Notes under the pieces: generated by a model
The model's database searches: none
What the model saw: the letters and a program-made list of their open reading frames with translations, nothing else
What the model was told of the DNA's origin: nothing
Made by a program: the position numbers and the translations under genes
From: Saccostrea cucullata
Lineage: Eukaryota
DNA length: 64,000 nt
Direction of reading: 5' to 3'
Assembly: GCF_032062105.1 (NCBI RefSeq)
Contig: NW_026929454.1
Coordinates: 62,001 to 126,000 of the forward strand
Shown: positions 3,934-64,000 of the stretch, in pieces
Position numbering within the stretch: the stretch's first letter is position 1
How the letters are laid out: the number at the start of each line of letters is the position of its first letter

Positions 3934-3937
<4 letters not shown>

Positions 3938-30380: not shown

Positions 30381-30545
30381 CAATTTTCATATAGTGATAT
30401 AAGATGAGTTCGGATAAGAGATGCCAAAGCGTAACAGTCGGACGGAGGCACGTACAGACAGACTTACATTACACAACTAAAGATCGAAGCTGAGGTTACG
30501 TAACTTAGATCCAGCATGATGCAAATGAAAACAATTCTAGATTCT

Positions 30546-33500
30546 TTATTTTGAAACATAGTAGATATTTTTCGGATAGTTAAACATATGACTTTTTCTG
30601 TATGGGCATTCCCTGATGAAGAAACCACGAATACCTCCCATTCTGAAAACGAAAAAAATGTACTTCAGGTATTCAAACTTTAAAATTCTTAATAATCTTT
30701 ATATCAATAATCAAAACGTTTATCACTTGGGTTATAATTAACCAGAATAGATACTATACCAACCCGTTTGAAATTGGCTTTCTTCCTGTAACTAAATATC
30801 CTGGACCAAATGGTGATACAAAATTTTCTGTCGTTCGGAACCATATTTTACATTCATTGTCATTGTAGGAAGCTCCAAACACTATATAAATAGAGGAGAC
30901 GCATTTGGAATTGTGTTCAATTAATAGAAATACTTTCAAAAAATGATAAGTCAATAAAAATACAACCAGAATTTCTGAAATAGGATTCACTGAACGTGGT
31001 GTTCCATGCTAATATCATAACAAAAAGTGTAGTAAATTTAAAAATCAAACAGATATAATCCTGATCTTTATATTAAAAACTTAGGCTGAGAATGAAACTA
31101 ATCATTTTTAGCTTTGATACATATTTAGGATATTTTTCAAAACAAATGTAGTACGACATAGTAGTTTTTATGTCATTTTTTCAAGTACAGAATGACTAAA
31201 GTCGATGACAATTTTTGCGCAAACAACAGCATTGGAAGGATTTTTCACACACTGTTAATCTTACTTTTCGAATGGCTACATGTGTCAACAAGATATCTAA
31301 AAAAAATCTTTAACATATTCTAATAACATTTTTAAAAAAAAAAGAGTATTCGCAATGCAGTTTAGTTGATCGAGATGTATTAACGCAGGAAACAAAGTTT
31401 AAAAAGTAAGAATAGAAAGGGAATGAAATAATGCAGATCCAAGCTTGTTTAATTTGTAATTGACAGGGACATTTGCAAATACAATTAAAAGCTGCATAAA
31501 AAAACATTACTAAAAAAGAAAACAAGATACGCTGTAGACAAAACGGGAATGCTTTGATATTAAACCTCTTCGTAACAGATGCAATTTTCTACACCAATTA
31601 AAGGGAGCTTCTAGCAGCTACATGTACGAACCAGAACAGCAAATAACCCTTCTCTGTCCCGCGTCAGAGTTGATCCCATTGAAATAGTTTTTCTGTGGGC
31701 AAACAAACGCTTCAAATGCACCAGCGTCTTGAAGAAGAATAAAATAATATTGAAAATGAGAAATAAGTCGTATTATAAGTTTTAAACTGAGTACTGGGAA
31801 ATATGCATATTTCTATTTTCAGTATATGAAAAGTTGTGTCTAAGATGGAATCAGATTTATGTTTGTCTCTTCTATCTATTCGATTTTTTTTCTTCGTTTG
31901 AGATTTTATTTGGACTTACTGAAAATGGCACATTGTTTTACTTTTCCTGGTGGAGGGAGACATAATGAACCGAAAAAAGACGTTGGATCGCCGCCTCGAA
32001 ACACAAGTGGTCCTTTGTCCGTACAGTTTATATTTGAACGTTGAACAGAAATAGGTTCAGTATTTTCTACAATGAATTATGTCTCTGTAGAAAGAGTCAA
32101 CAGTCAAACAAAGCTGGAATAGCTAATTCAAGTTTAGCTTAGATCGGCGAGCTAGCACCGAAGCAATTTTTAAACAGAAAGGAAGGTTTGTGAAAGACTG
32201 GTTTATTTTGCAGTTTTCTTTAATGTTTAACGAGGCTGGAGTCTGAAAAATAGAGTTATTATGTAAATTATGTAAACCAAATAGCTTTGAATCCACACCA
32301 ATGGCCGATAAAGAATCAAGTAATATTTCACGTGCCCTGGTGTAAGAAATAGGCTTGTTGATATTACAAAGCCTGTGACAATTAGCTGATTTGAAATAAC
32401 GTACAGATCTAAAAATGAAATCGTCTGGTTTTCCTGATATTCCAGCTAACTGTAAATAATGTTTTGCCCAAAACACAGGACATGTAGCATTACCTGTACT
32501 TGCAATGAGAACATCATTACCTCGTCTATAAACGTCAGTTTTGCTGCTTTCAATATGTAAACACATGTAAAAATCATGAAAAGAAATATTTCTAACTCTT
32601 AAATTCGCAAGTTCATTAAATCTTAAAAACCCCGCAAATCCCATCAGAAACATAGCACACACTCTTACACTTAATAAGTCATTTTTTTGACTGACATCAT
32701 CGTATTTGTTTATGATCTGCTCCAAAATTTCGGGCGTAATAGGTTCCTTCTTCTGAATCGGCTTACTAAGGATTCTTTTTCCTCCTTCCATAACCATATG
32801 CAGAATTTTTGTATCACACGGATTAATGCACACATTGAAATCATGGAACCACTTAATACTGTAAAAATAAGCTGATAACACTGATTCTGATACCGACTGT
32901 TGCACGAGACTGCTAAGAAATACGGCTACCGTACTCACTGCCGCGGGTAAATGAGAAAGACCATGATCTGAACACCAGGTCCTGAACTTTTTAAAATATA
33001 TGTCGAACATTTTATTTAAACTATCACTCTGCCCTTTCCTGATTATGTGCTGAATATTTGATGCTGCTGAATAAAATCTGCTGTCCATTTGCATTTCCTG
33101 AATGTTTGTCAAAACACTGCGTACCTAGGGAAAAAAAAATGAAACCACCGTCATATCCAAATACATGCATATCAAAATAATAATTTCATCACCCAAAAAC
33201 TGTCGTGTTTTTTAAACAATTAGTCAAATCTTTTGCACATGATGCTTAATTTTTTGCACATGGTGCCTTACTAATAAATTAGTTCATACAAACTTTGCAC
33301 ATGGTGCATGAATTTTTATTGTACATTGAACTGCACATGGTGCTCAAATTTTATACTTTTCAGGATGTTCCAAAATTTACTTTCAAAACCAGTACATTAC
33401 TCTGAAATTTTTCTGATGCAAAAATACCGTTTTTATCTGAACCAGCTGTGAGAAAATTTGTAGGATTTTTATATTCAAAATACTTCAGCACAAAATCGTG

Positions 33501-36500
33501 AAATTTATTTTTCCTTTCATTCCCATCGGCCAATACAAAGCGGATTTCCATTTTGGAATGATTAACGTACCAAATGCTTTACATATTTGCATATGAGTAA
33601 TAACTTTGCATATCAAAACAGGTGGGGGCACAATCCAACAATTATCGTCAGCCCAATTTTGTGCAAATGCATCAACCCCTGAAGATCCGGGGAGTCCAAA
33701 ATCTAGAATAAAATTTTTTAACTTTTCTATTCTTACTATCTGCAAATAAATCACAGGTATACTCTCGCCATACTTCATTAAAAAATTTAAAAATTCTGTT
33801 TGAAACTCCCCAATCATCATAATCATAAATCTTGCTTAAGTCATCTGCATCTGTATTCATAGTTCTAGGAATCCATTCTAACTCTAATTTTATCGAATAC
33901 GCAACACACAAACCAAACATTTCCAAAGCAAGCTGATGCAGCTCGTAGTTCATACTACCCTTAGATGCAATAAGTACTGCATTTTTATTATCTGTATACA
34001 CTTTGACAAGTCTACCCGACAGATAATTTTGCAAACTCTCAATAATCACACAAATAGCTTTTATTTCTCGCCACGTAGAACTTTTTATTTTTTCTGAATC
34101 ACTCCACATGTAATGCACTACCTTTTCATTTTGTTCTAAAGAAAAACCTGCTCCTGCAAAAGAGCTCGCATCCGAAAACAAAACTTTTGCAGGTATTTTT
34201 CTGAACCGTGTAATTTTTTATCTCGGTAAAGTGGCCATATTCTTGTACCAGAAAAGCAATTCAATAATACAGTCACGTGACATATTCAATACACAATCCC
34301 AACCAGTTCTCTTACACAATGCCATGCTCAAGTGTCGTGTCATCAGCTGACAAATACTACCTAAAGTAGGTTTCAATGAAATGACCTTTCCCACAATAGA
34401 ACCGACATTTCGCGCAGTTACTCTACTTACATTATTCACTATCGAAGCAACAACAGAACGAATACTGTCAATTTTTTCATTCGGAACTTCTAAAATGCCA
34501 TCTTTCAGATTCCATACAAATCCTAACCAAATCATTTTGTCTACTGGAACAAACTGCGATTTTTCTATATTAACCTGAAACCCTGAGTGATCTAACGTTT
34601 TCTGTAGAAACGCGGCTATTTCTATACAAGAATTGTAATCAGAGCAAACCCAACCATCATCGAGATAAACTACGATAGGAATGCTATGAGATCTCCAACA
34701 TTTTACCAATACCCTCACAACTTTTGTGAAAATATGCCCTGCAGAAGAAAGCCCAAATGGCAAAACAGTGAATTCAAAATATTTCCTTTTTCCCTGAAAT
34801 TCCCAACTAAACCCTAAATACTTTTGAAATTCGGGATGTACATCTATATGGTGGTAACCCGATTTAAAATCAAATTTTATCATGAATTTTTCTTCTCTAG
34901 CATATAACATAGCTTCCTTAATTCCCTCGAATTTAATTTTTTGCTTCTCAATAAACTGATTAACATGTCTGAGATCTAAAACAAGACGTTTTTTACCAGA
35001 CGCGTTAACAGACACAGTCAAAGGATTAACTACAAAAGATGGTTTTTGAATCTCTCTAACACACCTAGTCTTAATTAGGTCAGAAATAGCTGAGCAAACA
35101 AATTCTGCATGATTTAATGAAGACCTGTTATTTTTTAAAATAATACTATATAGAAGTTCTTTGAAAGGTATAGCATACCCACATCTTATAATATTCAAAA
35201 TAAAACTATTAGCATTAAGCTCGTCATTCCACAAATTTATGCTTTTCTTGAGCTTGGATTTAACACTAACCATCTCAACATTTTTCTCATATTCATATTG
35301 CTCATTTAAATCAAACATATACTCAACTTCACTATTTTCACTGCTTAGAGGTTCCACTTGTGCTTGTAGTTGAGGTTGACAAGGTGGGGATGGGCTGGCC
35401 TTTGAGGTATGGGAAGTCTCTGACCATGTGTCCGACTTGCCGACAGTAGAAACATCCGCCACGATCTCTTTGGAACTGGAATACTGTATTTCCGACCCTT
35501 GAAGCCCCTGTGTTGAATTTTTCGGAGGAATTATACGACTGGCTAAAGCCACAAAAAAAGTCACTGGGCGCAAAACTTCCTCTGCGTCTTTCATACGGTT
35601 TTGCTCTGAAGGATCGTTTTCTTGCAGCACGCCCCACAGCGTAATGAAGCTTAGTGGCATCTTCGGTATTATCTGCCAAAGGGTCATCGAGATACTCGTG
35701 CACGGTATCCCATCCGTGACGGTCAGCGATTTTCAGAATTTTGTTTCTCTGTTGTAGGGCTGTCTTTTCTTCCTTAATAACTGCTGCAGCCTTTGTTAAA
35801 TCAACTTCCTGAATGAGACCTTCAATTTCAGACAACTTAGAAAGTCTATCTTGATTAAACGCGAATTGAATGTTATGCCCCTCATGCTTAAATTCAAATG
35901 CTTGTCCGGACTCAGGCACGTGTGCTGCACTTTTCAAGGCATTACTTTTTCCTAGTTGTTCTGTAAGTCCTGCAATTGTACTCACAATCACATTACTTTG
36001 TTTTTCTAAGGCTTTGTTGAGTGAAGTACTAAACAGCGAAACGGCGTCCTCGTTTGAGAGCCCAACTTCATTACACTCCATTGTATTACTATCCTCCATA
36101 TTTCTTACAATCTTTAAATCCTAGCGAGCAAGCTTAGAGTGCCGTGCTACCGCATGGCCTTACTATTTATACCCTAAATAACCACGTGACTTCAGAAGAA
36201 AACTTTTCGAACACATACCACACATAATTTTAATTGATATGTGGGAATTTGATGGTGGTGTTGAGTAATACTGCATATAAAATTTTACAGTTCGTGGCGG
36301 TATTGAATTCATGGGTCTCCCCATACCTCGAAATCAACGCAAATTCAACTTCCACGAAAATTAGTGATTTCAAGGTACACATTAAATAAACAGACTTCAG
36401 AATCAAACAACGAAGGCCAGTTTTATTCAATTACACAACGAAATCGTTATCGTACAGTCTGTCTACAGTATTTTTTACATAGACCGTGAAATTTGTTTTT

Positions 36501-38100
36501 CCAGAATGCCCGACCGTGAACCCAAGAACGCGTATTCCAGAAATATGCACAAACGTAGGTGCTAACGCTCTTGAAAGAGCTCTAGTAAAAAGTGCACGTC
36601 CTTAATGCCCATAATTAATATACTAATCAGTCCCCTTTCATGTAAACTATTATTAACTATTGAATAAAGAAAATAGAGTATCTGAGGCCAAGAAGTGCTC
36701 AAGTAATATCTAGAGATGTTATCAAACTCCTAAACATGAAAAGAAACTTGCAAATATGATCAAATACCAATATTAAGAAAACTTGTGTCCCAAGATTACG
36801 TCATCTTGCCTAATAAAACGTAACCTTTATCTCTGATGTAGTCAAGTAGGAATATCTGAATGTTTTTTTTTTACACATCTGCGTTGTTTCAACTAGTGAT
36901 TGTATCTTTGTTTTCTTTCTAATTTTCAAATTAAGAGAACGGGAAAAAGTATGGAGCATTGTTTATATATTCTGCTAGATTTTCAACCATCGATATTCAA
37001 ACGATTCGGAGGGCTTCGTTTCGCATATAACACTTTTCGCGCTTATTCGCCTTCTTTTTTGTTTTAAAGTTGGAACTGTACATGATGAAGATCATCTCAT
37101 GGAACACTCCATAGATAGATTTAAGAGGGGAATTACAAAACTTTGTCCTCAAAGTATGTAGCTTACAAAATCCAGGATTCGTCAGTGCACCCGTTTTGTA
37201 GACCATTTTGCAGCTACACGGGTTTTGGGGGCCATATGAGAAATTTCTTTGAGGCAAACTTCATTGAAACATTTTAGGGAAATTAAATAGTCCTTGTGCC
37301 TTTAAAATAAAAGATGAGAATATCACATCGGCTTCGAACGAATTGATTAGCGGTACTTTCCTTCCATGAGAATCTTTTCCAGTTATTTAAACTTTATAAG
37401 ATATCAATTTATATCGGCCGTCTTTATAAAAAAGAAATCAGGCTTGAGAAATTGAATTTAGAATTGTTTGCGTTTGGTAGTTTTAAGGATATTTCAAGAA
37501 GATTTCTAAAGCTCAAAATGTACAAAATGTTATTCTAAAATTTGATTATTTAAAGGTGAAATTTACCTATTTGAAGCAAACGTTAAAAGGTTAAAAGACA
37601 AAAAAGTACATGATTTTACATTGTTAAGCCTATGAACATAAGATGGCTTAGAAAATAAGTGATTTAAAAAAAGAGTTCTAAAGAAGATCATTTTCAGAAA
37701 TTTTAACATTGAATATTTAAATCAAAATACTGAAAAATTAAAGTTTTCAAATGTGTATGGAAGTTTGAAACAAGATATTTTTTTAACTAAAATATTTAAT
37801 TTTAGGTTAAGTTCTTGCAATTTAGAAATATAATATAATTGACTAAAATTCTAAACCAACAAATTATATTAGAATTGTTAATTGTTACACAGACCATACA
37901 TGGCATGTTAGAACGCTAATTATTCTTAGACTAAATGCATTTTTTTCACAAAAAGGTGTAAAGACTAAAAAAAACTTATGTATTACTGCTTAAAATTCCA
38001 TTATGGACTAATTCTTACCTTGAACAACATCACCCAGCTTCATTATTTTTGCATTTACAGTAAAACATCCTGATATGCAAAGAAAAATGATAAATATCAT
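30546..38100 (-). CDS. Secreted 8-Cys protein, paralog X1 (179 aa, dermatopontin-like pattern); exons 38100-38019, 32066-31920, 31727-31632, 30881-30764, 30642-30546
   Basis: All introns GT-AG; exon total 540 nt, open frame. MIFIIFLCISGCFTVNA-KIMKLGDVVQENTEPISVQRSNINCTDKGPLVFRGGDPTSFFGSLCLPPPGKVKQCAIFNAGAFEAFVCPQKNYFNGINSDAGQRRVICCSVFGASYNDNECKIWFRTTENFVSPFGPGYLVTGRKPISNGMGGIRGFFIRECPYRKSHMFNYPKNIYYVSK*. Exon structure shared with X2. Confidence 0.85.
32268..33112 (-). pseudogene. DIRS tyrosine recombinase, truncated at the HxxR motif
   Basis: Homology ends at KLFGLH; the catalytic R, H/W and Y are missing. Confidence 0.85.
33360..35687 (-). pseudogene. DIRS pol: RT (34218-35687), RNase H (33672-34181), methyltransferase-like domain (33360-33826); frameshifted
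   Basis: KKRLVLDLRHVN, LPFGLSSA, VYLDDG; FSDAS; GVDAFAQNW...WIVPPP...LIIPKW. Confidence 0.9.
35338..36099 (-). CDS. DIRS gag-like ORF1 (253 aa), overlapping the RT ORF
   Basis: KILKIADRHGWDTVHEY motif and degenerate CCHC knuckle (CFYCRQVGHMVRDFP). Confidence 0.8.
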   Translation of the reverse strand: MEDSNTMECNEVGLSNEDAVSLFSTSLNKALEKQSNVIVSTIAGLTEQLGKSNALKSAAHVPESGQAFEFKHEGHNIQFAFNQDRLSKLSEIEGLIQEVDLTKAAAVIKEEKTALQQRNKILKIADRHGWDTVHEYLDDPLADNTEDATKLHYAVGRAARKRSFRAKPYERRRGSFAPSDFFCGFSQSYNSSEKFNTGASRVGNTVFQFQRDRGGCFYCRQVGHMVRDFPYLKGQPIPTLSTSTTSTSGTSKQ

Positions 38101-38124
38101 GTTGTTTTGTCAAGGAAATAATAT

Positions 38125-38215
38125 TCACGTGCTTTTTATAGATATGCCATTGGCATTGACTTCAGAATTTTAATTAGTGCCCCTTTTGTGTGTTTTGATT
38201 GATTAAGACTAATTA
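38125..38215 (-). promoter_or_regulatory. TATA-containing proximal promoter of X1, conserved with X2 (51545-51632)
   Basis: Both loci share TTTTATAGATAT (TATAAAA on the minus strand), CATTGACTTCAGAA and TTTGATT...AGACTAATT upstream of the ATG. Confidence 0.6.
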
Positions 38216-38428
38216 GTTTTTTTTTTTGTTTTTTTTTTCTTTTTTTTTTGAAAATTAACTCTTTATCATTCATGCCAATTCATGCTGATATAAATATCAT
38301 GTGAAAGGAAATAAAAAAATATCTCACACAAAAATCTTTCTTCAATGAACTCTTCTTTTTTGTTCTTTAAAATGCTTTTTGTTTTACATATGCAGAGAGA
38401 GAGAGAGAGAGAATTCAATGAATTGTCT

Positions 38429-38625
38429 GACTGTGAAATCATTTATTTTCGTGGGGGATGAAAGTAAACATAATTTAAGTCCACCCTAAACCACGAAATT
38501 TGATTTTTCAGACATATTGCTACTAAGTATGCAATGCATCTTCAGCCCTCGAACCCCTCGAACCAGATTTTATCCCTAAAACCACGAAAATTTGACCAAA
38601 TGAATATATATATTATCTTACACTA
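38429..38625. mobile_element. Degenerate MITE; related half-copy at ~36270-36378
   Basis: CTGTGAAATCATTTATTTTCGTGG ... CCACGAAAATT inverted ends. Confidence 0.5.
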
Positions 38626-39112
38626 TGCAACAATGAGCACAATTTGTAAAAAAAAAAATAATAATAATAAAAATAAAATGTTTCTCGCTTATAAATACTG
38701 GAGTACGAAATAACTCTTCCTTCGAAAGGTGTAGTCTAAACCTTATGACCAGTAATTGAGTTTTTAACATAATTGTGCATTTTTCTTTCATCTACCGACC
38801 ATATTTTTTGTCAAAATTTACAATTGCATTCATACAAGTAGTTTCCATATATATGTGTGTATCTAAAATTTTAAAAATTAAAATCTTTGTTTTGTACAAA
38901 AAGATGATAATGTTAATCTAAGACTATGTTTCATGGCCCTTAAAAGTATATACATTTAATTTAAAATATTCATTTCTTTCCAAAGGCGATAACGTCGTGA
39001 AGGAAGTATTAGACTTGATAACTTTTCTCTTTAACAAGCTTCCTCACAGGAAATTGATGTACCTTATAAGGCTTTGCAAGTTGCTAGAGGATGGTATTTC
39101 CTAAAATATCAT

Positions 39113-40390
39113 ATACGTCGATACGATATATCCTGGTGAGCTTGAGATAAAGGATACCATAGATTCTGACACATCTATTTCATATTTGGATGTTTTACTT
39201 GAAAAAGACGTTAATGGTAATCTAACAACCAAGCTATATGATAAATGTGATGACTTTTACTTTTCTATCGTCAACTTCCCTTACTTATGCAGCAATATAC
39301 CTTCATTACCTGCATACGGTGTATTTATATCTCAGTTGATTCGATACGCAAGCGTATGCTCTACGTGCGAACAATTTCTAAAACGGGGTAAATTATTGAC
39401 AAGCAAGTTGATGAAACAAGAATATCAACAATTTCGTTTAAAGTCATCATTTTGTAAGTTCTATGGTCGATACAATGACCTTGTCAGCAAATACAATTCT
39501 TCATTGAGTCTATTTTTAACTCTGTGAACAGGTGTCCGTAAGCACTGGTCATTTTAAGAAACCTGTTTATACTACAAGCTAATTACCCCCTCATTATAGG
39601 CAATATCCTCCGATGGTTTGACAGGCACTGAGACAGTGCGTCCATATTTAAGTATTTTGCCAAGAAAGAGAGACCAGGTATTTTATTTAACTGTCTTCAA
39701 TAAACACGGGCGATAACTCGTACTCATTGCATTTACTAGAGAACATGGCGTGTAAATTTTAGGTGAGAGAAAACGTTGAGAAAATTAGTTGAATTCCTGT
39801 CTTTATTTTGGATTATATTTTAGGTTAAAAGGCATACACAACCTGAAAAAGGTTTGATAAATTAATTTAGAAGTATTTTCAGTGCATATCCTTTTGTAAT
39901 CTTCGAAATTGTTTGGGAGCGGTTCAGCAATTTTTTTGCAACGTTGCAAGTATATTGGTGGAATTCCAATTGTACTAACTAATGTAAATTAAACATAAAC
40001 TGATATGAAACTCTTAAGTGCTTTTTATTTGTAGCGCCAATGGCAATTCGCAAAATTTTGAAACGTAAAAATTAATCAACAGCTTTTTGACCTAAATTTG
40101 CAAAACTAAAGCGACGTAAAAATTGCCAGATTTACGGTATGCTGACTGACGTTTTTCATACTAATTATTAATCCATTATTTGTGCACTGAATTGGCAACG
40201 GATTTTCCCGTTATTTCCCGATCATGACAAGGAGCACACGGGTGTGACCGGTCGGCAGGGGAAGCTCATTCCTCCATGGCATCTGATCCCACCTCTGATG
40301 TTTCGGAGGTCCGTGTTTGCTCCGCTCCTATTTTGTATTGTTTTATGGACTTTTGATTTGGATACTATTCGTTATCTCCATACCTTTCAT
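39113..40390 (+). mobile_element. Naiad-type PLE copy, interrupted by a ~630-bp insertion (39511-40138)
   Basis: RT C-terminal ORF 39186-39527. The consensus TCATTGAGTC|AAATGCTGACTGACG is split between 39510 and 40139. 3' motif at 40231-40325. Confidence 0.85.
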
Positions 40391-40747
40391 AGAGAATCAC
40401 TAAAATTGCCAATATCACAATTGTTTTTATTCACTTTAGAATCAGTAAAGATAACACAGGATAATGATGATTATGGTTAATTTATTGTATGTTACACAGT
40501 CAAGTAAGTCATATTACACAGAGATACAAAACACAAACATCTTTTAAAAACGTGTCGTCAAATCTTTATGTCTTTGGTTAAAAAATGCTCTTGCAATTAT
40601 TTTGGTTGAGAGGTACGGTGTAATATAAATGTATATTATTGTCATTATTGTCTTTTTTGAAAAAGAGTGACAAACGGAACCATTTTTTCTCTTTTATATA
40701 CTAGTCAAAACTGCTAAGGTGTCTGGTTATTCTTGTTTGCAAATTCA

Positions 40748-41045
40748 TTCTATGATCGATACAATGACCTTGTCAGCAAAACATTTTATCATTGAGTCAT
40801 ATGCTGACTGACGTTTTCAAACTAATCATTAGTTTATTATTTATACACTGAATTGACGACGGATTTTTCCGTGATTTCCCGATCATGACAAGAAGCATAT
40901 ATATGTAGCGGGTGTGACCGGTCGGCAGGTTTTGCTCACTCCTTTATGGCACCTGATCCCACCTATGATGTTTTGGAGGTCTGTGTTTGCTCTGCTCTTA
41001 TTTTGCTTTGTTTTTTGGGATTTTGATCTTGAAAACTGTTCATTG
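40748..41045 (+). mobile_element. Naiad-type PLE 3' end
   Basis: ORF terminus plus 3' motif at ~40890-40995. Confidence 0.85.
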
Positions 41046-42398
41046 ATTGTTTCAATGAAAAATTATAAACAAATGATGGATTTTAATTCAAGTACATGAA
41101 CGAAAGGGACAGGTTCAGGATGACCAGTGCTTTGATTGTGAGGGACTTTGTGGTGTGTGTTCGGCAGGAGCGGGGAGGGGGTATGAAAAAAAAATTGCAA
41201 TACTTATAGTTAACATGAGATTTGTAGCATACGAGGGTTGACACAAATTTAATATTTCCTAAATTTTACGTGTACTTGTATAGGGTGTGCCTTTCCACCA
41301 CTAACCCCACAACGTCCACATACGCAACTTGATTTGGTTTGGAATAATATTGGATATCATTCCTCGGTTTATCATTGAACCCTTTAACGCTCTTCTTCTG
41401 TATATGGACGGGTTTATTTTCGAAAGAAACAGCGATCATGAGCTGCATATGCTGGAAAGTAAAGACTCTTATCGATTAGATATTTGATAAATTTTAGTCC
41501 GAAAAAGTCGGTCGCTTTGGTGTTACTGAATTTTGAGATTTTGAGAATTCACATCTGATTTACACAGGCTCCAGAATATTCTGCAGCATAGTGCCTCTGA
41601 ACTCTCTTTTTACCAACAGCTAATATTTTTGTAAGGTGTAAGGATAGATTAAAATGAGCATTTGCTCGACTATGTAATGTATCTCTGTTTGTAAGGATTT
41701 TTACAAAAACTAGATATCCAATACAGGATGATGGATCGAATGCACCTTTGTTGACTGGGATTTAAAATGTTAAAAAAATAATTTTGAAGAATTCATAATT
41801 AGATTGAAAATTTATTGTAAAATATAGATTTGGAGCTTTTATCTATTTTTAGAACTTTTTTTAAGATGGTCGTTTTAAGGTCTTAATTTTTCATTTAATG
41901 GAAATAACAAGTCAGGGAGAGTCCAGCGAGGCATTGTTTGTTTTTTATGTAAATAATCTTTGGCCACTTTTGAAAGGCTAAAAATTGTCTCACTTTAAAC
42001 GATTTTATTCATCATGTAAGGATGATTTTATTTTTATTTTTATTCCTGGATTTTCTTAAACTGATTATATTTAGGACAAAAATTTTCCCACCTACCTACC
42101 GATTTTTTTTACCCTGAATCAGGAGAGTCAAACAAACACTATTAAAAATTTTTGTTGATGGTTTCCAAAGAAAATTGCTTGCATTCTTTTTTGAAATTTG
42201 AAGAGTTCTAAACATGTTTAAGAATTTTTAGAGATATAATCAATTGTATTTTGCTACAAAGATATTAAGATGATCAATTTACATATTATCAAATATTATC
42301 TATATCTCTTTTTTCTTTTCATTCATGTCTTTTGAAAGTATTGAAATCATAAGATATTTTAAAATTTAAGATAATTTTATTTTTCCTCAATGTTTCCG

Positions 42399-43310
42399 TT
42401 ACAATCTAAATCCGGAAAACGATGACCAGCTTACGACAGCGTATTGCCCATCTCCACCATGTGTTCTAATCCAGACTTTATCATTTTTCTTCATTTTTAT
42501 TATAGCTGTCGAAGATCCGGAAGAGTAACTCGAACTGCCTGAGACGCCATCCGCATGATTGTAGCCAATTATATTACTGTTAAGAACAATATCTGTGTTA
42601 AACATCTTCCCAGCTAGTGTGTTAGAATGGTCCACGTGAATGAGTAGGCACCATCTTCAGGTGCTGTGAATTTACCTGTTATAGCATCACAGGCATTTCC
42701 ATGGTTTAGAGTTGCCTTTCCAAATACAACAACAGCATAGTTGGTAAGGTTAACCTTAAGTTTCGATAATTGTGACTGAAAAGCTATGATTCCTGTTTAA
42801 AATAAACGACAAATGCTTAACTGTAGATTCAACAGAAACAATGAAAAGTAGTATGTAAAAGATATTCCCTGAAAGGTTTTGACTTTGATAATGTAAAAAT
42901 TTTTTATACGAGTATTTCACATTTTGAACAGTAATTTAACATGATCAGAGAATCCATGTAACCTAGCTTGAAGGAAATCAAAAATTTTACGTAATTCTAT
43001 ATCTGACATTTCACACAGGAAGACCAACACATCTTTTGATGAAATTATACCTTTTTCTCCTGCTGTGCAATTAGTTGTTCTATAACCCATTCCTTGACAC
43101 ACTGTATTGTACTTTTTGTATTTCTCGAGAAAGTCTTGTGGGCGTTCCTCTGCATACACTACAAAAATTATGCACACAACAAGGAGTGTCGTTTTGAACA
43201 AAGTTGTACAATTCAAAGACATTAAAAGTAAAAATAACATTTTATTCAAAGCAATATGTCAAAAATTAAAATTATAAGATATCATAAATTTGCAGTGAAT
43301 ACTTGCATGT
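42399..43310 (-). pseudogene. C1qDC paralog B; gC1q exon 42792-42399, upstream exon ending 43051; +2 (CA) frameshift at ~42620
   Basis: IIAFQSQ...GKFTAPEDGAYSFTWTILT, frameshift, then LAGKMFNTDIV...DKVWIRTH...WSSFSGFRL*. Upstream exon reads LLVVCIIFVVYAEERPQDFLEKYKKYNTVCQGMGY. The 5' splice sites look non-canonical. Confidence 0.85.
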
Positions 43311-44685
43311 TTGTAGTTAGATTTCAATTTTTCTGTTTCTTAATCCACAATACAGTTACATACATCAACTGCCCCTCTTTATATACTATCATGACAGTAA
43401 TTAAAATGTAACATGAGTAGATCGGATGACATACTGATCTTCTCGTTCACTTTTAATTAAGCTTCTAATAATGTTTCTGTTAAAATCTTACTGGTGGTCC
43501 AAGGTAACAAATCAGCTCTCGTTTCTAAAATTCATAAGAGAAAACATCTTAAGTGTAAAACAAATCTTACCATTTATTTAAATGACGAAAAATGTAAACC
43601 ATAAAAAAAGAGCACGAAAGAAAACGAAAGAATTTGGATGGGACACATACCATAATCAAAGAAAGCTTGACCAGAAATGCAGTTCAATAAATGATTACAA
43701 AACAGTGGTCTCCCAGTAACAATATCGTTAAAACATACAGATGTTATAATGCTGTAAAATTCAACTTCATACTTCACTTGAAACAAAAGTGATGCATAAA
43801 GAACGATCCATAAAACAAATTCAAAATAGCTTGATTAATTAAAAATGTGGTGGATAGAGTAGGGGTGATGGTTGCTTTTTAGATGTGTTCATGAATATTT
43901 TGTATCCGAAATTGGTGTGATTCCCAAATTTGGGGTTGACGATTAATAAGGAATCGGTCTTACCTACAATTTAACATTCAACAATGTTAAGGAACGTCTC
44001 GTTCCTCAAAATCTGTTTTGTATATCTTCGTAATGTAGGAAAAATATTCAAAATTTTCATAATATTCTGAATTTTAAACCAGTTTCTAGACTTTTTAAAA
44101 AAAATCCAAACACTTAAATATTTGAAATTGGAAAATTATTTTTCTTCCCCAAAGGATTATATAAGAAAAACTACCCCTGGTATCTTGCAGAAATGCCTGG
44201 TAAGGTACTTCAATTTTTTGTGAGTAAACATGTTTAAGTAGCAACACTTCAATGACAAACTCTTAGAAAAATTTATCTATTATTAATGAACGTCTCGTCT
44301 GTCCTTAAAACCAGATTCTACTTCAACGAGTAACACCCCATTGTCTAGGAAGTACAAAAACATACTAGTAAGTCTATTCGGAAAAGGACAATGACCAAAC
44401 TTGATGCTTGTGAAACAAAATTCTGTCAACTACTGGTACATCCAGGGGTACAAATATAAACAAAGGCACACTTTTTAGGTACAACCTAGTAAATATCAGA
44501 TACTTTCTGCAACTTTTAATAGTGGCTAGTGCGTTGGAGTTAGGGTTAAGAAACTGTTCATTACTATTAAGATTTTTTTTTTCTTTTCTTTCTTTTTTTT
44601 TTATTTGCTTCTTGTAGTGGAGAGGGTTGAAACTTCTTGCGGCAGTGAACTTATGGATTTATATTTCTAAAATGGAATACACTTT

Positions 44686-45020
44686 TCGTTTAAAGTAATC
44701 ATTTTGCAAGTTCTGTGGTCGATACTATGACCTTGTCAGCAAACACAATTTATCATTGAGTCAAATGCTGACTGACGTTTTTCATACTTGTTGTTAGTCC
44801 ATTATTTATACACTGAATTGACGTCGGATTTTCCCGTTATTTCCCGATCATGACAAGGAGCACACGGCGGGTGTGACCGGTCGTCAGGGGATGCTCACTC
44901 CTCCATGGCACCTGATCTCACCTCTGATGTTTTGAAGGTCCCTGTTTGCTCTGCTCCTGTTTTGTTTTGTTTTATGGACTTTTCATCTTGAATACTGTTC
45001 GTTATCTCCATATGTTTCAT
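44686..45020 (+). mobile_element. Naiad-type PLE 3' end
   Basis: ORF terminus plus well preserved 3' motif at 44857-44951. Confidence 0.85.
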
Positions 45021-45128
45021 TGAAGACAAGAAAAAGGAGGCTACGAACTATATATATACTAATATCTATGAAATTTATATTGGATGTCACAAAACAAAAT
45101 TGAGCTTGAAGAATTGCAAGGTTTTGAG

Positions 45129-45166
<38 letters not shown>

Positions 45167-45739
45167 AAGAATATACCTGGTAGCAGAACTTTAAACAGAT
45201 ACATGTATATATATAATATACACTATATTATTACATTTGAAAAAATAGACAGTTGGGTCAGAATTTGCTTTTACATAAGACTTTTAAACAACTCTCAGAC
45301 TTTGTATTTGATAACAAACAAATTAGCATTTTGGACACTTACTTAGCATCGTTGGAACAATAAGCACCAGGAAAGAATCTTGTTCTAATTCTTTTATTAT
45401 CTCTATCATAAATATTCCTATACATTAACAAATTTTGATGAAATTAGTCTCTCTGTTTGGCTATTTTGTATATCAGAAGATGATTTCAACTGTTTTTTAC
45501 TTTCAGCAGATCTATTATGATTGACGCCTGTAAATAATACAATAGATAAACGAGTAAAATGAATATCATTTATTATTCTTATGGCATAACAGGTCGTCGC
45601 AATGTTTTCGGGACCATCGGAGAGCCTCCCTTGCGTAACATTTTAAAAAGTACATGTACTTGACGATCCCAAAAGGTACACTGGGTTATTCTCAAGTAGA
45701 CAGAGTCATCAATACAGGCAAAGTTATCAAGTTTTTAAT

Positions 45740-46044
45740 CGATGATCGATCGTTGATTTACTGATTGTATATTGTTTAACGCTCCTTCTCGAGAATTTTT
45801 CACTCACGACACCACTTGCCGGTAAAGAGCTGCAAATTTTGACCTACACTCGGCACTCAGGGCCATTGAGCAGTGAGGGATCTTTTTGCTGTCAGCACCT
45901 ACTGCGACATGAAAACTCGGTTTATACGGTCTCATCCGAAGGACCGGTCTCCACGTCCCACAGTAGGATTCGAACTGCGACTTACGGATCAATTCCTTAC
46001 CTCGCGACTCCAGAGCAGACGCTCTAACCACTGCGCCACGTGGG
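45740..46044 (-). mobile_element. tRNA-derived SINE with Deu/Nin-like core
   Basis: Minus strand: A-box TGGCGCAGTGG, B-box GTTCGAATCC, core CTTCGGATGAGACCGTATAAACCGAG...AAAGATCCC, tail GTTAAACAATATACAATC. Confidence 0.8.
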
Positions 46045-49000
46045 AGACACCAACTTTATGAAATAAATATTCAGAACTACCCAAGCTGGTACCTCTAATG
46101 GATATCATTTAAAATATTAACCATTCAATGTTTGATCTCATTCGTCAACAGATTCATTAAAACACTTTTAAAACGATGGCCGATTGATTTAACAGCCAAC
46201 CTCTGAATACACATGAATATATCACTAAAATCGAATATTTTTTTTTTTTGCTTTACAAAATTATGTACAATGTAACATAAAAATGATTTCTTGACTATTT
46301 TCAAGAGTTTTATAATCATTCTTTTAAAATCATTCATTTTTATTAACATCTCCATTCATATCTGGAACACAGACATACGAATTAACAGGATTTGGCAGTA
46401 CAATGACCAAAATTGTCGATAAAAGTACACTTGTTAAAACATATTCAAAGCATTTTATGAATTAAACTAATTGTTTATTGTACTCATGCCAACAAAATTC
46501 GAAACCAACTTACAACTGGGAACATTTTTTTCTCGAGTATAAGAGTGGAAAAATTTTCAAAATAGATAAATTGTAAAATCTTACTGACACGATAACTTTT
46601 AGTTGGTCTAGAAAATGAAATGAAAGTTTAGACAAAGAATAGAATTTAAAAAATAAAGCTTTAAATGCACGAGTTCAAATTCGGTGTGTTAATGAATTCG
46701 TCAAATGAAATTTAAGACTTCCTTATGTTAATTATTTGCAATGACTGTCTAAGGAATCAGGCGAGGAACTCATCAGTTAAATTTAATTGTCATTTGTAAA
46801 TCAATAACAGTATATGAATGAGTCGTAACGTTTCTATATAATGTCATGCACATGCAATGGCACATCGGACTAAGGGAGGAACAAAATGAGTCCATACAAA
46901 CAAATAAAATACACTCAGATATGATATTAAAAATAATTCAATTAAACTCATGTTATCGATACATTTACTAGTCTAAAAATAATTTCTCTTTTTCATTGCT
47001 ATAAAAAGAATTCAGTTAAATTATTAAAGCATATGAAAAGTTTGTGAGCTTTGCTACAACATTTCGATATAACAACAGCACTAAATCAAGCAAAAACATT
47101 CAAATTAACATTAAGTTGTTTCTTTATTTTCCTGTTAACTACAAATAAAAGATGCTACAGTGTCTAACACATATGTTTCATACATGTATGCGGTTGTTTT
47201 AATAAAGACATTGACTAAAACTGAAAACTAACAGAAAGCTAACGGAAACTGAAAACTAACTTGTCATATACATTATAACTTCATATTCTTTTATTAACTA
47301 ATATATTTTCATAATTTCAAAAAATTTCATAATCTATATATTAAATATATACCTGATGTTCCAAAAATTATTTCTTTTTTAAATTATCCCCTTGCATTCG
47401 TCTTTGGCGTTGTCTAATTATAAAAAGAAAGCATAGAAATATGGATATCTAGCTATAGAAAAAGGTGTGACAAGGATGGCTAGCCCATAGCTGTTTTGGT
47501 ATCATACAAGATAAAAATCTTAAATAGCTAAAAGTATGAAGCATCTTTTACTCGTATCAAAAACGTTAAGGCAGCCATGATTGTATATGGTATAGTATTT
47601 AACAAAGTATCGTAAAAAAATATTTCATAAATTTGTAATCATTTACTTTTTGTTGCATTATCTGAATATTATATTATTGGTGACCAAATGTTTTATTGAA
47701 AGATCTTGAATACTGTTCATCATCTCCATATATTTCATCTAATACACTTACACATGTAATCATGTACATGGCACTAATTTCTTCTAAATGTGATTGTTCA
47801 CGATATTAGCGTCACAATTATGATTGATAAACGAAGTGAATTCATAAAAAACCTTCCAATTTTTTTTTAGAAAATAATATTAGCATGACTATATGGAATG
47901 AATGTCCTCATCCATTATATTTTAGCTTATTTCTATCAATGACATTTTATTTTATCTTTTAGAATATAAGAAAATATTTTAAAACAAGAAAAGAATTTTT
48001 CAGCATCGATAAAATTTATGGCTTCACTCTGTAGGAAAAAAATCTCTATTTTTTATCAATTGATTTGTATGGCAACAGCTCTCTTTGAAATATAAGAATA
48101 CAATTTGTGTTTCTATATAAAAAATTAAAATTACGAAAAAGAACAGAAAATGTACCTCTTCATTCATTTTTAACTTTCTCACATTGATAAGGAATATAGC
48201 CTATTTTTGAATTGCATAAGCAAATTACATTATACATTTTCTACGCCTTTTTTGCCATATCCAGATAGAAGGGGGCATAATTCATAGAAATCATCAATTT
48301 ACATTCAAAATATATCACTGAAAGGGGGGGGGGCTTCATAAAGGTTTGGAAATGAACAATGGTTGTGACAAACAAAATATATATACAGTATACACTCTAT
48401 AAAACAAATCCGTAAACAGGGCAAAAACACCGACTCCCAGAAAGTTACTGTTAGCCGGTTACATTTTCGTGATCTCTTATACTATAGTACAAAATAATTA
48501 GTATAAAACTAATACCTTACAATTGGTATTATACAGATATAGACCAATTGATAGATTTTTATTGCCTATCATGCCCTATAACGACGATTGAATTTTTTAA
48601 ATGAAAGAGTCAAACAACTGTATTGACATCCCTGGAACATAAACTTATCTGTCAATAGCCCACATTCTTTCATTATTACATACATATTCAGTTGAGGATA
48701 AAAAAAGCTGAAGTAATCTCATTTATCATACAATTTGGTTCATAATTTGCCCTTGTTATTTGTAGTAACTAAACCCTCCAAATAAAAAAAAAACAGATGC
48801 TGCAGACTACGTTTATTTCATGTTTGAATCGACATGTTATTGGGAATCAATGTTGATATCTGATATAAAAAACAATCTAATGAACCTTTTTCCTTGAATG
48901 ACATTTAATTAAAACTATATTAAAGGCACAAGGGCAGAGATACTACGTGCCGTCATACTTGGGCAGAGTTTACTAATTGGAATTGGTTGAGGTATTTGGA

Positions 49001-49261
49001 CCAGTTACAGGGGAGGCGAACAACTTATAATTTGAAGATTTTTTTTTGTTCAAAGAAAAATAGGGATGCAGTTACATGAAAAGAAGAGAAGAACTGTCAT
49101 TAGTGAAACAAAACTTGGTGGACTTTATCCTTCTATCTCTATATACATAAATTATTTCAGCTTTATAAGGTTTACTTATTTGTATATTGTAAAACTGAAG
49201 ATCAACGCTGAGGTTTAAAAATTGATTTTAATGTAATGCATATGAAAAAATAAGATTTTTT

Positions 49262-51517
49262 TTATTTTATAAAATGGATGATATCTTTGAGATAATTAAA
49301 CTTGTCGTGACTTCTTATGTATAGGCATTCCCTGATGACAAAACCAAGATAACCTCCCATTCTGAAACAAAAAAGCAGTATTTTATTCAATCTTTTAAAA
49401 TTAAAATCTTGATAATAATGTTTTTTTTTTCTTTTTCATTAGAAAATCGTTTATCAAAATGTGTTTTATACCTACCCGTCTGGAACTGGTTGACTTCCGG
49501 TAACTAAATATCCGGTCCCAAACGGTGATACAAAGTTTTGTTCCGTTCGAAACCATCTCCCACATTCTTTGTCATTGTAGGAAATTCCAAACACTATGAA
49601 AATAAAGGAGACGCAATAACATTTGTATTTAATCACTAGAAAGAGAAATACAAGTAATTGAAATGATGGAAAGTCACAAATGTATATTACAGGGTTACTA
49701 CATATGATTCTATAACTTGTGGTCCTATACTTAATTCAACAATTTCATCTTTTTTGCGGAAAACAGTTTGCATAAATTGAACATATTGCATCTACCCATT
49801 TCAGACGTGTTTGAGATTCGAATCCTGAACAGTTTTTACAGTGACATCATAGCTTTTTTATGTCGTTTTTTTACATTATAAGTACAGATATAATTCAAGG
49901 GGGGGGGGGGTAGAAAAAATATAGTTCGGATCCAGATTTACTTTACCATACTTTTTTTTTGTGATACTTGCATATATAAGCAACACGAAAACTTGGGAAT
50001 AAGATACTTTTTTTATCTAAAATAGTCTTGATTTTAAATTGTATCCAGAAAAACAAAGTCAAATAAAAACATAACGACGTAATTACATTCTTGCTGTGTG
50101 GATATAGTCAAACCAATTTTTTGTTTTATTTTGATTTTTTTTCACAATTTAGTACTGCAAATGTCTGAATGAAATTTTAAGGCAAAAGTCTAAAAGATGA
50201 ACTTACTACTGTATGAAAATTTGGTTGACAATTTTGACAAGTAGTGGTGAAATAACTTTTGGATCAATCCTCGTACAGGTATTCATCACTAAATAAGACG
50301 TTTTTACAGGTACTAACCTGAACAACATATGAGCCGTCTCAGTCCTCCTTCAAAGTTGAGTCCATTGAGGTAGCTTTTCTGTGGACACACAAACGCTTCA
50401 CGTGCACCAGCGTCTTAAACAATTGTTAAGATTAAATTAAACATGAATATTTATTAATTTAAAGAAAAGACAGAGGTACATGTATTCTTTAAGTTAAAAA
50501 AATTGTACCTTCATATCCAATTTTCACAAAATAAATATATATTTTACAATATACAACATATCAATAGAATCTCTTCGTGTTTTTTTATATATAAGACTCT
50601 TACTACATTTCGAGTATTTTTAACCTCACATGTACATGAATGTGAAAACATTGAGAATAAAAGACCGAAAGTGTATAGTTAGTATTTGTTTCGTTACAAT
50701 CAAAAAGTAGTTCCTCGGCATTTATAGTAGAAATAAATATTACTGCTTCATCATGCCAAGATCATTGTCTTTATATAAAGCAGTGTATGTATTCTTCATA
50801 TAAAATTTCGGTTTGACTTACTGAAAACTGCACATTGTTTTACCGTTCCTGGCGGAGGAAGACATAATGAACCAAAAAATCTAGTTGGATCACCTCCTCT
50901 GAAGACAAGTGCTCCGTTATCCGAACAGTTTACATTTGAAACTTGAGCAGAAGTGGGTTCTGTGATTTCTACAATTTATTAAGTCTTGGTAAGTGGGAGA
51001 GTGAATAAGCAAACAAAGTAAAATTAAATAATAAAAGCACACATTTTGATACCCGTTCTTGACATTAATCCGTCTCCTATTCAATAAAATATTGGTCCAC
51101 CGGATTCAATTCCTGATGAGATACATAAAAAAACTAAATATACACTTATGTTCCTGAATACTACGTAAGGCATTTTTTTGTCCCGTAAATGGTGTGTACT
51201 TTATTTTTAATGAATAAATATAACAATGGAATCCTGTTAATTCACGATGTTGTATTTAGAGTTATGAGAACTGCTTTTGTCAATCACGAAAATTACATAA
51301 TATGTAACTCGGTATGTTTCAGAACATTCTATAGGACTGAATTTATGTTTTCTTGCAAAATAACTCTAAACAACTAAATTATTGACATAAAATTTCTTAA
51401 TTATTCTTAAAATGACTTTATAGATTATTTCTTACCTTGAACAACATCCCCAAGCTTTATTCGTACTGCATTCACCGTCAAACATCCCAGCAAGCAAAGA
51501 AATACATTGATTATCAT
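49262..51517 (-). CDS. Secreted 8-Cys protein, paralog X2 (180 aa); exons 51517-51436, 50968-50822, 50413-50318, 49593-49476, 49361-49262
   Basis: All introns GT-AG; exon total 543 nt, open frame. MIINVFLCLLGCLTVNA-VRIKLGDVVQEITEPTSAQVSNVNCSDNGALVFRGGDPTRFFGSLCLPPPGTVKQCAVFNAGAREAFVCPQKSYLNGLNFEGGLRRLICCSVFGISYNDKECGRWFRTEQNFVSPFGTGYLVTGSQPVPDGMGGYLGFVIRECLYIRSHDKFNYLKDIIHFIK*. Confidence 0.87.
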
Positions 51518-51944
51518 GTTCTTTTTGAAAAGAAAATGAGCTCCACATGCGTTTTATAGATATACCTCTGACATTGACTTCAGAAGTTAAATAAATATGG
51601 TTATTGTACATTTTGATTTATTTAGACTAATTAAATTTCTATAATTTGAATTTTTATAAGGAGAATATGTAAAATAAATCTTTAAAAATGTCAATTCTTA
51701 CTCGTTTATCTTTTGACAGGAAATAATAAATATCTCACGTTAAATATTTTTTCTATGAACCCTTCCTTTCTGGTTTTTGTATTTTTTTTTTTTTGTTTTA
51801 AATTAGCATAAATCTAGTTTTTTTTAAGAGAGAGAGAGAGAGAGAGATGTTGCATTTCATCATTGTTCTTATTGTTTTGTGATGATTTTTATTATAAACA
51901 AATTTAAAGGCAACTTTCTTGACAACGTCGGCGCTTATGCAAGA

Positions 51945-52900
51945 AGGATATGGAGATAACGAACAGTATTCAATCTCAACGTCCATTAAACAATATACAA
52001 AATAAGAGCAGAGCAAACACGGACCTCCGAAACATCAAAGGTGGGATCAGGTGCCAAGGAGGAGTGAGCATCCCCTGCCGACCGGTCACACCCGCCGTGT
52101 GCTCGTTGTCATGATCAGGAAATAACGGAAAAAATCCGTAGTCAATTCAATGTATAAATAATGGACTAACAATTGGTATGAAAAACGTCAGTCAGCATTT
52201 GACTCAATGATAAATTGTATTTGCTGACAAGGTCATTGTATCGACCACTGAATTTACGAAATGATGACTTTAAACGAGACTGTTGATATTCTTGTTTCAT
52301 CAACTTGCTTGTCAATAATTTACCTCGTTTAAGAAATGGTTCATACGTAGAGCATGCTCTTGCGTATCGAATCAACTGATATATATATACTCCGTATGCA
52401 GGTGATGAAGGTATATTGCTGCATAAGTAAGAGAATTTGACGATAGAAAAGTTAAAGTCATCACGTTTATCATATAGCTTGGTTGTTAGATTACCATTAG
52501 TGTCTTTTTCAAGTAAAATATCCAAGTATGAAGCAGAAGTGTCGGACTCTGTGGTATCTTTTATCTCAAGCTCACCAGGATATATCGTATCGACGTAGGA
52601 ATGGAAATTATCATTATTAATTGACAATACGTTGTCGATATATCTAAATGTCGAGTTGAAGGCCACAGCAAGTGTTTTCTTCTTTTCACGCATAAGATTT
52701 TGCATAAATTCTGCTTCATATGAATATGAAAATAAGTCTGCTAATAACGGAGCGCAATTTGTACCCATGGGAATTCCAATAGATTGTTGGAATACCTGGT
52801 CTCCAAAAACCACATAGATATTGGAAATAAGAAACTCAAGCATCTTCTTGATGTCAACTTCAGAGTACTTATGTGTGCAATCAGAATCTGTTTTAGCAAA
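51945..52900 (-). mobile_element. Naiad-type PLE, 5'-truncated, best preserved copy (RT ORF 52166-52843)
   Basis: QQSIGIPMGTNCAPLLADLF, FRYIDN, KLYDKRDDF, QLIRYARAC. The ORF ends without a C-terminal GIY-YIG. 3' motif at 52011-52104. Confidence 0.92.
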
Positions 52901-63899: not shown

Positions 63900-64000
63900 G
63901 TTAGACCTATTTAAAAACGTAAAAAAAAAGAAAGAGTGAAGGGCTTATTTATCTTTCAATTTTAAATTTGCTAACAAATGTTATACAGCAAAATATCTTT

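Follow-up and report, generated by a model that had tools for sequence, protein, structure and literature searches.

Two intact oyster genes for a probably secreted eight-cysteine protein, very probably a much-diverged branch of the dermatopontin family

This locus of the oyster Saccostrea cucullata raises the question of what is encoded by two similar genes for a small cysteine-rich protein, from which family they descend and what their products might do. The window, that is, the whole stretch of DNA analysed (64,000 nucleotides), contains only two copies, A and B, according to tblastn. Both are five-exon genes on the minus strand (Table 1), with GT–AG boundaries at all introns, intron phases of 1, 1, 1 and 2 in each copy, and no internal stops. 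Coordinates 30546 and 51517 are exactly the stop of copy A and the ATG of copy B. The products, of 179 and 180 amino acids, share eight mature cysteines (at 42, 63, 73, 86, 106, 107, 119 and 160), and the N-terminus is hydrophobic. Spliced copy A is identical to XP_062619324.1 (LOC134280889; P0003) and spliced copy B to XP_062619338.1 (LOC134280899; P0004), two S. cucullata proteins listed in RefSeq as ‘uncharacterized’. Both genes are already modelled there without a name, and the two intact paralogs with common exon lengths, phases and cysteines described in an earlier sequence-only reading are reproduced by these models. An alternative frame for exon 5 was rejected, since it meets an early stop in copy B and loses C160, although this cysteine is kept in relatives.

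Table 1. Exons and other features of the two gene copies (window coordinates; minus, minus strand)
Feature	Coordinates	Strand	Length and content
Copy A, exon 1	38019..38100	minus	82 nt; ATG, hydrophobic leader, phase-1 donor; product P0003
Copy A, exon 2	31920..32066	minus	147 nt; linker, repeat 1 (C42, C63), C73
Copy A, exon 3	31632..31727	minus	96 nt; both ends phase 1; repeat 2 core (C86, C106, C107)
Copy A, exon 4	30764..30881	minus	118 nt; first part of repeat 3 (C119)
Copy A, exon 5, coding part	30546..30642	minus	97 nt; C160, tail, stop; frame backed by C160 in relatives
Copy B, exon 1	51436..51517	minus	82 nt; product P0004
Copy B, exon 2	50822..50968	minus	147 nt
Copy B, exon 3	50318..50413	minus	96 nt
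Copy B, exon 4	49476..49593	minus	118 nt
Copy B, exon 5, coding part	49262..49361	minus	100 nt
Upstream block of copy A common to B	38101..38380	minus	TATAAAA starts at 38140, shared 11-mer at 38164; putative promoter
Upstream block of copy B common to A	51518..51790	minus	TATAAAA starts at 51558, shared 11-mer at 51582; putative promoter
DIRS-like tyrosine-recombinase retroelement (presumed type), intron 1 of copy A	32126..36120	minus	zinc knuckle, RT, RNase H/Dam-like, recombinase

Copies A and B have 125 of 179 residues in common. Over codons 1–163, dN is 0.17 and dS is 0.55, giving a dN/dS of 0.30 (bootstrap 95% 0.18–0.47), and the ratio stays below 1 in all 2000 resamples. This ratio indicates that both genes are under purifying selection. 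The same conclusion had been drawn earlier from a contrast with diverged introns, a contrast that is weaker than it was taken to be: the introns are 63–75% identical over aligned columns, and six of the eight stretches tested stand above shuffles at a z of at least 3. Intron divergence is thus smaller than implied, and purifying selection rests on dN/dS. In the putative promoter blocks, a TATAAAA element precedes each ATG by 40/41 nt. The 280 nt upstream are 71–73% identical (z 8.7 and 11.6), only moderately better kept than the introns.

A check of taxonomic range, proposed in the earlier reading, revealed relatives only in true oysters and one pearl oyster, in an exhaustive scan that used one query sequence, so that the family may extend beyond oysters and pearl oysters. 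The nearest database partners of A and B match at 165/179 and 162/180 residues (about 8–10% different). A scan of metagenome contigs with P0009 as the query gave 99 matching stretches, of which none is a relative. Some relatives (Magallana) carry an N-terminal WAP module, and the sole fusion seen in the family is that of WAP and a second small cysteine-rich module. The repeat proteins P0010 and P0014 were removed from the relatives; P0037–P0040, judged by eye to be exon-plus-intron read-throughs, and the partial P0012 and P0036 were left out. Twelve gene or protein identifiers of the family and four of its short motifs were unmatched in the literature searched, which covered few subscription papers and in which supplements with CGI identifiers could not be mapped. 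Two further supplementary files gave no family matches, and the proteins may still be listed in some published proteome of shell or mucus. As far as searched, the family is undescribed.

The suggestion of a possibly new family therefore stands as regards the missing name, in RefSeq and in this literature, and gives way as regards origin. Judged from its sequences, the family very probably descends from dermatopontin (DERM, PF14704), and a degenerate DERM branch describes it better than a separate family does. The dermatopontin kin considered are vertebrate dermatopontin, molluscan shell dermatopontins, the Limulus hemagglutinin/amebocyte aggregation factor and Millepora MCTx-1.

The proposed search against PF14704 gave no match: with the curated cut-off, the Pfam profile for DERM detects 0 of 29 family members (alignment A4), while all 16 fetched DERM ORFs used as a positive control pass (98–207 bits). 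A Pfam search of eight single exons and three full proteins was also negative. By contrast with this, profile–profile comparison bears out the echo of dermatopontin noticed earlier. In hhalign, the family matches fetched DERM proteins over 81–88 columns with a probability of 56–58% and an E of about 1e-4; over all comparisons the probability is 47–58% and the E about 1e-4 to 2e-4. These E-values are pairwise and would lose significance if scaled to a whole library. The score against an 11-row DERM alignment is 31.4, compared with 10.9 for the reversed control. Column shuffles peak at 16.2 (n = 40), or at 20.1 when the cysteine columns are kept fixed (n = 60), and none of these 60 reaches the real score. 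With cysteines changed to serine on both sides, the score is 25.3 (E 0.002). Scored with an HMM of the DERM alignment, 10 of the 15 family proteins outrank every one of 300 shuffles; the subgroup LOC105342419, compared alone with DERM, gives no match (E 0.064). In the ESM Atlas, the top matches of P0001 (0.91, 197 shared features) and of P0009, a relative of about 30% identity (0.93, 210 shared features), are PF14704 clusters, with scores of at least 0.9 also being reached by 4–10% of shuffled proteins.

The two groups share a similar organization, in which a hydrophobic leader is followed by a small single domain whose eight cysteines follow one order (C, C, C, C, CC, C, C), the CC closing repeat 2. 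Their spacing is similar, 20-9-12-19-0-11-40 in the family and about 25-(8–12)-16-25-0-(8–13)-42/43 in DERM. C86, C106, C107 and C119 are in register in the hhalign alignment, as is C73 in one comparison, a cysteine match that is favoured because the DERM set was picked by a motif containing CC. The elements C-P-x4-Y-[LV]-x-G and G-Y-x-[VL]-x-G also align in register. The alignment leaves out repeat 1 and the last part of repeat 3; together with cysteine spacing it implies repeats 2 and 3. Compared with each other by profile, the three internal repeats do not match (E 0.1–0.8). Intron 2, of phase 1, lies in codon C73+4, and an intron at C+4 of repeat 2 appears to be common to the family and some animal DERM genes: the same place was deduced in 4 of 63 DERM loci examined (L013, L018, L034 and L050), with sites read from AG/GT and all four loci from one metagenome assembly. 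Loci L023, L033, L042 and L055 seem to break at other positions.

The predicted structure (pLDDT 80.5, pTM 0.77) consists of strands only. The Foldseek check proposed for such models found nothing at E 0.001 for either model in the PDB or a viral library, where the best rows (TM about 0.5) are uncharacterised proteins of giant viruses and prasinoviruses. At Z 8, the caution line of the tool, neither model had a match in the fold searches. Jacalin, VMO-I and Cry domain II are absent from the fold-search listings, an absence that the tool does not count as exclusion. Searches of PDB sequences returned only chance zinc-finger and nanobody rows. VOMI (PF03762), the other family named for checking, is a small secreted cysteine protein with three repeats; it has no Pfam match in the family and appears in the ESM Atlas only as a lower neighbour (0.77 and 0.80), far under DERM. 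No literature tying dermatopontin to a beta-prism, or dermatopontin and amebocyte aggregation factor to a conserved cysteine, was found in a search that covered few subscription papers.

These results bear on a different origin, in which the protein would be a cysteine-rich beta domain of three leaves that arose on its own, similar to resistin/PCSK9 or to domain III of Vip3, and that resembles DERM in cysteine spacing only. The failure of Pfam DERM and the hhalign probability below 60% fit such an origin, as do the best structural neighbours: the central domain of the Vip3 toxin Vip3A (Z 5.1, rmsd 4.3, 110 aligned) and the C-terminal (resistin-like) domain of PCSK9 (Foldseek E 0.08; Z 2.2, rmsd 4.9). 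However, both likenesses are weak, at 5–18% identity and with scores in the range that the tool calls a ‘common arrangement’, from which no function was derived. Both lie below Z 8, and no solved DERM structure that could compete was found in the PDB by the DERM profile (best E 3). The persistence of the profile signal with cysteines fixed or masked, the two ESM Atlas queries leading to DERM and the intron place found in some DERM genes also argue against an independent origin, which is improbable.

If the family is a branch of DERM, it is one that has lost the family signature. N-x-[FWY]-D and H-x-N-x-x-[ED] are present in 11 of 11 DERM rows and in none of 27 family rows, so that the canonical places of N-x-[FWY]-D and H-x-N-x-x-E-D-R are without them. 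The earlier observation that the EDRxW/F motif is missing was right: an EDR-type word occurs in 3 of the 27 rows, all from C. virginica, where it stands at the beginning of repeat 3 and not at a repeat end. The loops are 2–7 residues shorter than in DERM, and the composition differs (family versus DERM: His 0.4% vs 5.3%, Trp 0.5% vs 3.4%, Asp 2.7% vs 7.1%, Pro 11.1% vs 3.2%). Another difference, apart from falling below Pfam detection, concerns the cysteines. Seven of the eight are invariant or nearly so in 26 rows, and one subfamily has the remaining one shifted: a cysteine near 73 is found in 15 rows, Cys 93 instead in 10, both in one and neither in none. Position 93 is opposite 106 in a predicted hairpin (E91–98/E101–109), and the tree indicates that the swap may reflect only one or two evolutionary events. 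Since the residues that all 11 fetched DERM domains keep are missing here, the lectin activity of dermatopontin agglutinins is not transferable by homology.

Regarding function, the preferred role is drawn from family priors. A tentative reading, to which we give slightly less than an even chance, is that the protein is a secreted, much-diverged dermatopontin that binds adhesively, with no enzymatic activity, in extracellular matrix, shell or mucus. The leader would be cleaved and a chain of about 18 kDa exported. Three degenerate repeats would form one beta domain with four disulfides, probably C42–C63, C73–C106, C86–C107 and C119–C160, a pairing supported by the exchange of Cys 73 for Cys 93 opposite 106. 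The loops that bear N-x-[FWY]-D and H-x-N-x-x-E-D-R in DERM would have been shortened and replaced, with loss of the ancestral sites, and binding may take place through a new Pro/Gly/aromatic/Arg surface comprising F50, P67, G68, Y114, R124, S131 and P144, all invariant or near-invariant in the family. The protein would then tether matrix macromolecules or cells with no catalysis. The chance that the role lies in matrix or adhesion, and not elsewhere, is about even. Dermatopontin is reported to act generally in the interaction of cells with the matrix and in the assembly of the latter, and to have been recruited twice to snail shells (PMC7747718). The WAP-fused Magallana relatives were also counted in support.

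The main rival, although rather unlikely, is a secreted immune recognition protein or agglutinin, with the same dermatopontin-derived domain binding, clumping or opsonising microbes or parasites. Both genes lie inside a cluster of C1q-domain genes, with which they alternate on the same strand. These neighbours fit an immune role as well as a matrix role, although a tandem-duplication neighbourhood does not imply a common function. The 8–10% difference from the nearest partners is as often seen in diversifying immune genes, but the dN/dS of 0.30 between A and B speaks against such a role. Dermatopontins were reportedly recovered from snail plasma with schistosome proteins (PMC5433772), dermatopontin expression is reported to shift in challenged oysters (PMC4133350), and the paper on the Limulus hemagglutinin appears among the dermatopontin references of PMC7747718. 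Against these precedents, agglutinin activity does not follow from homology once the motifs common to all fetched DERM domains are lost, and the fold searches listed neither jacalin nor VMO-I, with the caution already given.

Two further roles were weighed. One is a role in reproduction or in the larva, as part of the egg coat, in gamete recognition or as an adhesive for settlement; the secreted binder would evolve fast and be driven from a tissue-specific TATA promoter. Such a role would agree with a lineage-restricted, fast-diverging family, the short TATA-type upstream region and the VOMI clusters among weaker ESM Atlas neighbours. It is quite unlikely, as the VOMI scores are under the level that the tool requires for more than a lead, and the supplements of a larval adhesive proteome (PMC6193008; two files, whose identifiers may differ) list none of the six Magallana identifiers looked for. 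A cytotoxic or toxin-targeting module is suggested by the fire-coral MCTx-1, described as an 18 kDa dermatopontin homologue (PMC8954376), by one fetched DERM protein (L030) fused to a MACPF domain, and by the weak fold likeness to a Vip3 domain. However, a pore-forming or catalytic domain occurs in 0 family members found, the WAP and cysteine-rich combination being the only fusion, and the signature motifs are lost, which makes this role highly improbable.

A bolder version of dermatopontin descent, which we consider unlikely, is that the scaffold, minus all three ancestral sites, with one disulfide rewired in a subfamily and a WAP fusion in another, acquired a new binding function as an innovation of oysters and pearl oysters. 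The product might be a cement or mucus adhesive, or a recognition partner co-duplicated with the C1q-domain genes. If so, this would be an unnamed family with a predicted fold without a close solved relative, and a natural control for the dermatopontin EDR motif. To our knowledge, the binding target of dermatopontin's conserved EDR repeat is unsettled. An EDR-less branch under purifying selection, beside canonical oyster dermatopontin, could part the effect of the scaffold from that of the motif. More modestly, DERM descent offers a tentative label for about 20 ‘uncharacterized’ oyster gene records missed by Pfam, and illustrates on a small scale how a lineage-specific secreted protein of molluscs may prove to be a worn-down old family. 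It is a modest variant, not a new kind of system, and would not change a field, the genes having already been modelled.

Finally, the copies differ in the length of intron 1, which is 5952 nt in copy A and 467 nt in copy B. Most of the copy A intron is accounted for by a retroelement, which we take to be DIRS-like from its domain order and which does not contribute to the protein.

Comparison of the window with itself revealed four paired blocks (30519-38384 vs 49236-51794), which resolve into copies A and B, two minus-strand genes of five exons each (82, 147, 96, 118 and 97 or 100 nt), with intron phases of 1, 1, 1 and 2 and GT-AG boundaries at every intron. Their open frames encode 179 and 180 aa with identical cysteine positions. 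The products (P0003 and P0004) equal the S. cucullata 'uncharacterized' RefSeq proteins of LOC134280889 and LOC134280899, an identity that represents the agreement of two computational models. The sequence-only reading of two intact paralogs with common exon lengths, phases and cysteines was thus confirmed, and both genes are already modelled, without a name. A literature search with 12 gene and protein identifiers and four family motifs, covering main texts and few subscription journals, returned no paper.

Purifying selection, which that reading had derived from intron divergence, is supported by a dN/dS of 0.30 between the copies (interval 0.18-0.47). The intron argument itself is weaker than the codon test, because the introns still agree at 63-75% of aligned columns and the 280 nt upstream at 71-73%.

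The family formed by these genes and their relatives probably descends from dermatopontin. The proposed check against PF14704 (DERM) gave no DERM match for any of the members (0/29). However, the suspected echo of dermatopontin held up: DERM clusters came first in the ESM Atlas for two members ~30% identical, cysteine spacing parallels that of DERM, with shorter loops, and the profile score beat all controls. The comparison set comprised 63 loci fetched with a dermatopontin motif pattern, and 16 of 16 chosen ORFs were confirmed as PF14704. Comparison of the family and DERM profiles gave a probability of 56-58% and a pairwise E of ~1e-4. A cleaner 11-row DERM alignment, after removal of L057, L030 and L007 (misaligned) and L060 and L061 (near-duplicates), scored 31.4 against the family, compared with 10.9 for the reversed control, at most 16.2 in 40 column shuffles and at most 20.1 in 60 shuffles with fixed cysteine columns; masking cysteines on both sides still left 25.3. 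Two subfamilies match DERM separately, and the LOC105342419 rows alone gave no DERM profile match.

Intron 2 of the two genes lies in phase 1, four codons past the cysteine opening repeat 2. In the 63 loci, splice sites were deduced from AG/GT and the point where homology ceases. On this basis an apparent animal exon begins at the same place in four loci, with one compatible and one ambiguous case; one starts a codon earlier and four break elsewhere. A phase-1 GT stands three codons past CC in 8/63 loci, and one codon past CC in the two genes. The likeness to dermatopontin includes the eight-cysteine order and, in some loci, the place of intron 2. The signature motifs (N-x-[FWY]-D and H-x-N-x-x-[ED]), present in 11/11 DERM rows, are absent from their canonical places in 27/27 family rows, in line with the earlier remark on EDRxW/F. 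The family is classed as a probable variant offshoot of dermatopontin and not a member, because two defining features tested were not found in it.

The full-length predicted model reached a pLDDT of 69.6, and a trimmed-domain model from 29 sequences 80.5 (pTM 0.77); the latter shows eight strands but lacks any long helix. The best structural matches were all weak: Vip3A (Z 5.1, rmsd 4.3, 110 aligned), the PCSK9 C-terminal region (E 0.08; Z 2.2) and uncharacterised viral proteins (TM ~0.5). No PDB chain matched the DERM profile. In the family alignment, Cys 73 and Cys 93 (copy B numbering) exchange almost exclusively (15 and 10 rows, one with both, none with neither; n=26), and the extra cysteine of the single double row lies nearer 75. 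This suggests that a disulfide has changed sides on a strand. The predicted disulfide pattern draws on this exchange, the predicted hairpin register and the connectivity of mammalian dermatopontin. The latter has five intramolecular disulfides, according to an excerpt of PMC7703894.

Relatives were sought by word-based searches and by exhaustively scanning 1.84 billion representatives with a single sequence. All named relatives that these found belong to Saccostrea, Magallana, Crassostrea virginica or, as partial models, Pinctada imbricata; the eight matches of the exhaustive scan were six family members and two unrelated repeat proteins. A 21-row tree, midpoint-rooted for drawing only, has two clades. 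One is all-Saccostrea and contains the window genes, next to the long branch of Magallana LOC105342419; the other unites Magallana, Crassostrea and Pinctada with a single Saccostrea gene. Five Logan contigs (916-1001 nt) encode the LOC105342419 protein over its full 183 aa, which fits a spliced mRNA origin, short of proof. In a Magallana subfamily the family domain is preceded by a WAP domain and another small cysteine module (precomputed PF23334).

Selection has preserved the scaffold of cysteines together with certain Pro, Gly, aromatic and Arg residues, and the proteins match no catalytic family. The protein would be exported, fold into one compact beta domain and bind through a rebuilt surface, perhaps serving in extracellular matrix, shell or mucus as a tether. 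This role is proposed from the WAP fusion and from dermatopontin precedent, since the consulted parts of the literature describe dermatopontins as assembling matrix and as recruited to shells more than once (PMC7747718, PMC3374290, PMC3544910, PMC4023409, PMC6368272). Taken whole, a dermatopontin offshoot acting as such a tether is a tentative proposal, at slightly under even chances, because the evidence does not decide between roles. An immune role has its own support: C1q-domain genes and fragments alternate with both copies on the same strand, and dermatopontins occur in snail plasma pull-downs (PMC5433772) and oyster challenge data (PMC4133350), as excerpted. Two of the C1q-domain exons (56.7 and 62.1 kb) are open and three (23.0, 42.4 and 53.8 kb) carry frameshifts or stops; the 24.3 kb copy is a fragment. 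A toxin role, by analogy with MCTx-1 (PMC8954376, in part), would be a minor alternative. The complete motif loss, cysteine exchange and WAP fusion would merit the attention of a mollusc or matrix specialist, without being very surprising.

Features of the window (window positions) and the domain fusion in relatives
Feature	Location	Strand	Remark
C1q-domain cluster, tandem	23010-23704, 24321-24491, 42402-43222, 53765-54134, 56713-57105, 62072-63914	-	interleaved with the two genes
DIRS-like retroelement	32126-36120	-	inside copy A intron 1
Its zinc-knuckle ORF	35341-36120	-	
Its RT	34221-35732	-	
Its RNase H and weak Dam match	33675-34217	-	
Its tyrosine recombinase	32126-33124	-	
Broken LTR-retrotransposon-like ORFs	11732-15687	+	
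RT-like repeat family fragments	16586-17529, 39114-39510, 40139-41044, 44684-45024, 51948-52900, 62905-63726		
Direct duplication	1-1954 and 8090-10035		2 kb, 89% identity
Its prolongation	3911-4437 and 10035-10555		
WAP and PF23334-module fusion	P0013, P0030, P0031		Magallana gigas

The ~4 kb retroelement in copy A, which matches RT, RNase H and tyrosine recombinase, is presumably DIRS-like by its domain order; no terminal repeats >12 nt were found. Among the broken LTR-type ORFs, Pfam recognised gag, and visual inspection added protease, RT, RNase H and integrase. Many further fragments, 75-91% alike, come from a single repeat family that has an RT-like frame.

Dermatopontin domains were also met elsewhere. 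In eight apparently bacterial loci (L005, L006, L012, L022, L029, L031, L035, L039) the ORF closes with collagen-like G-x-x repeats and, after them, one dermatopontin repeat; the three titled ones are from Myxococcota, Myxococcales and Proteobacteria. Complete three-repeat dermatopontin occurs in Candidatus Parabeggiatoa as well as on two metagenome contigs (L002, L015, L061). A single repeat occurs in Marilutibacter and on a viral contig whose protein has the same end (L004, L063), and L030 fuses several DERM domains to a MACPF domain.
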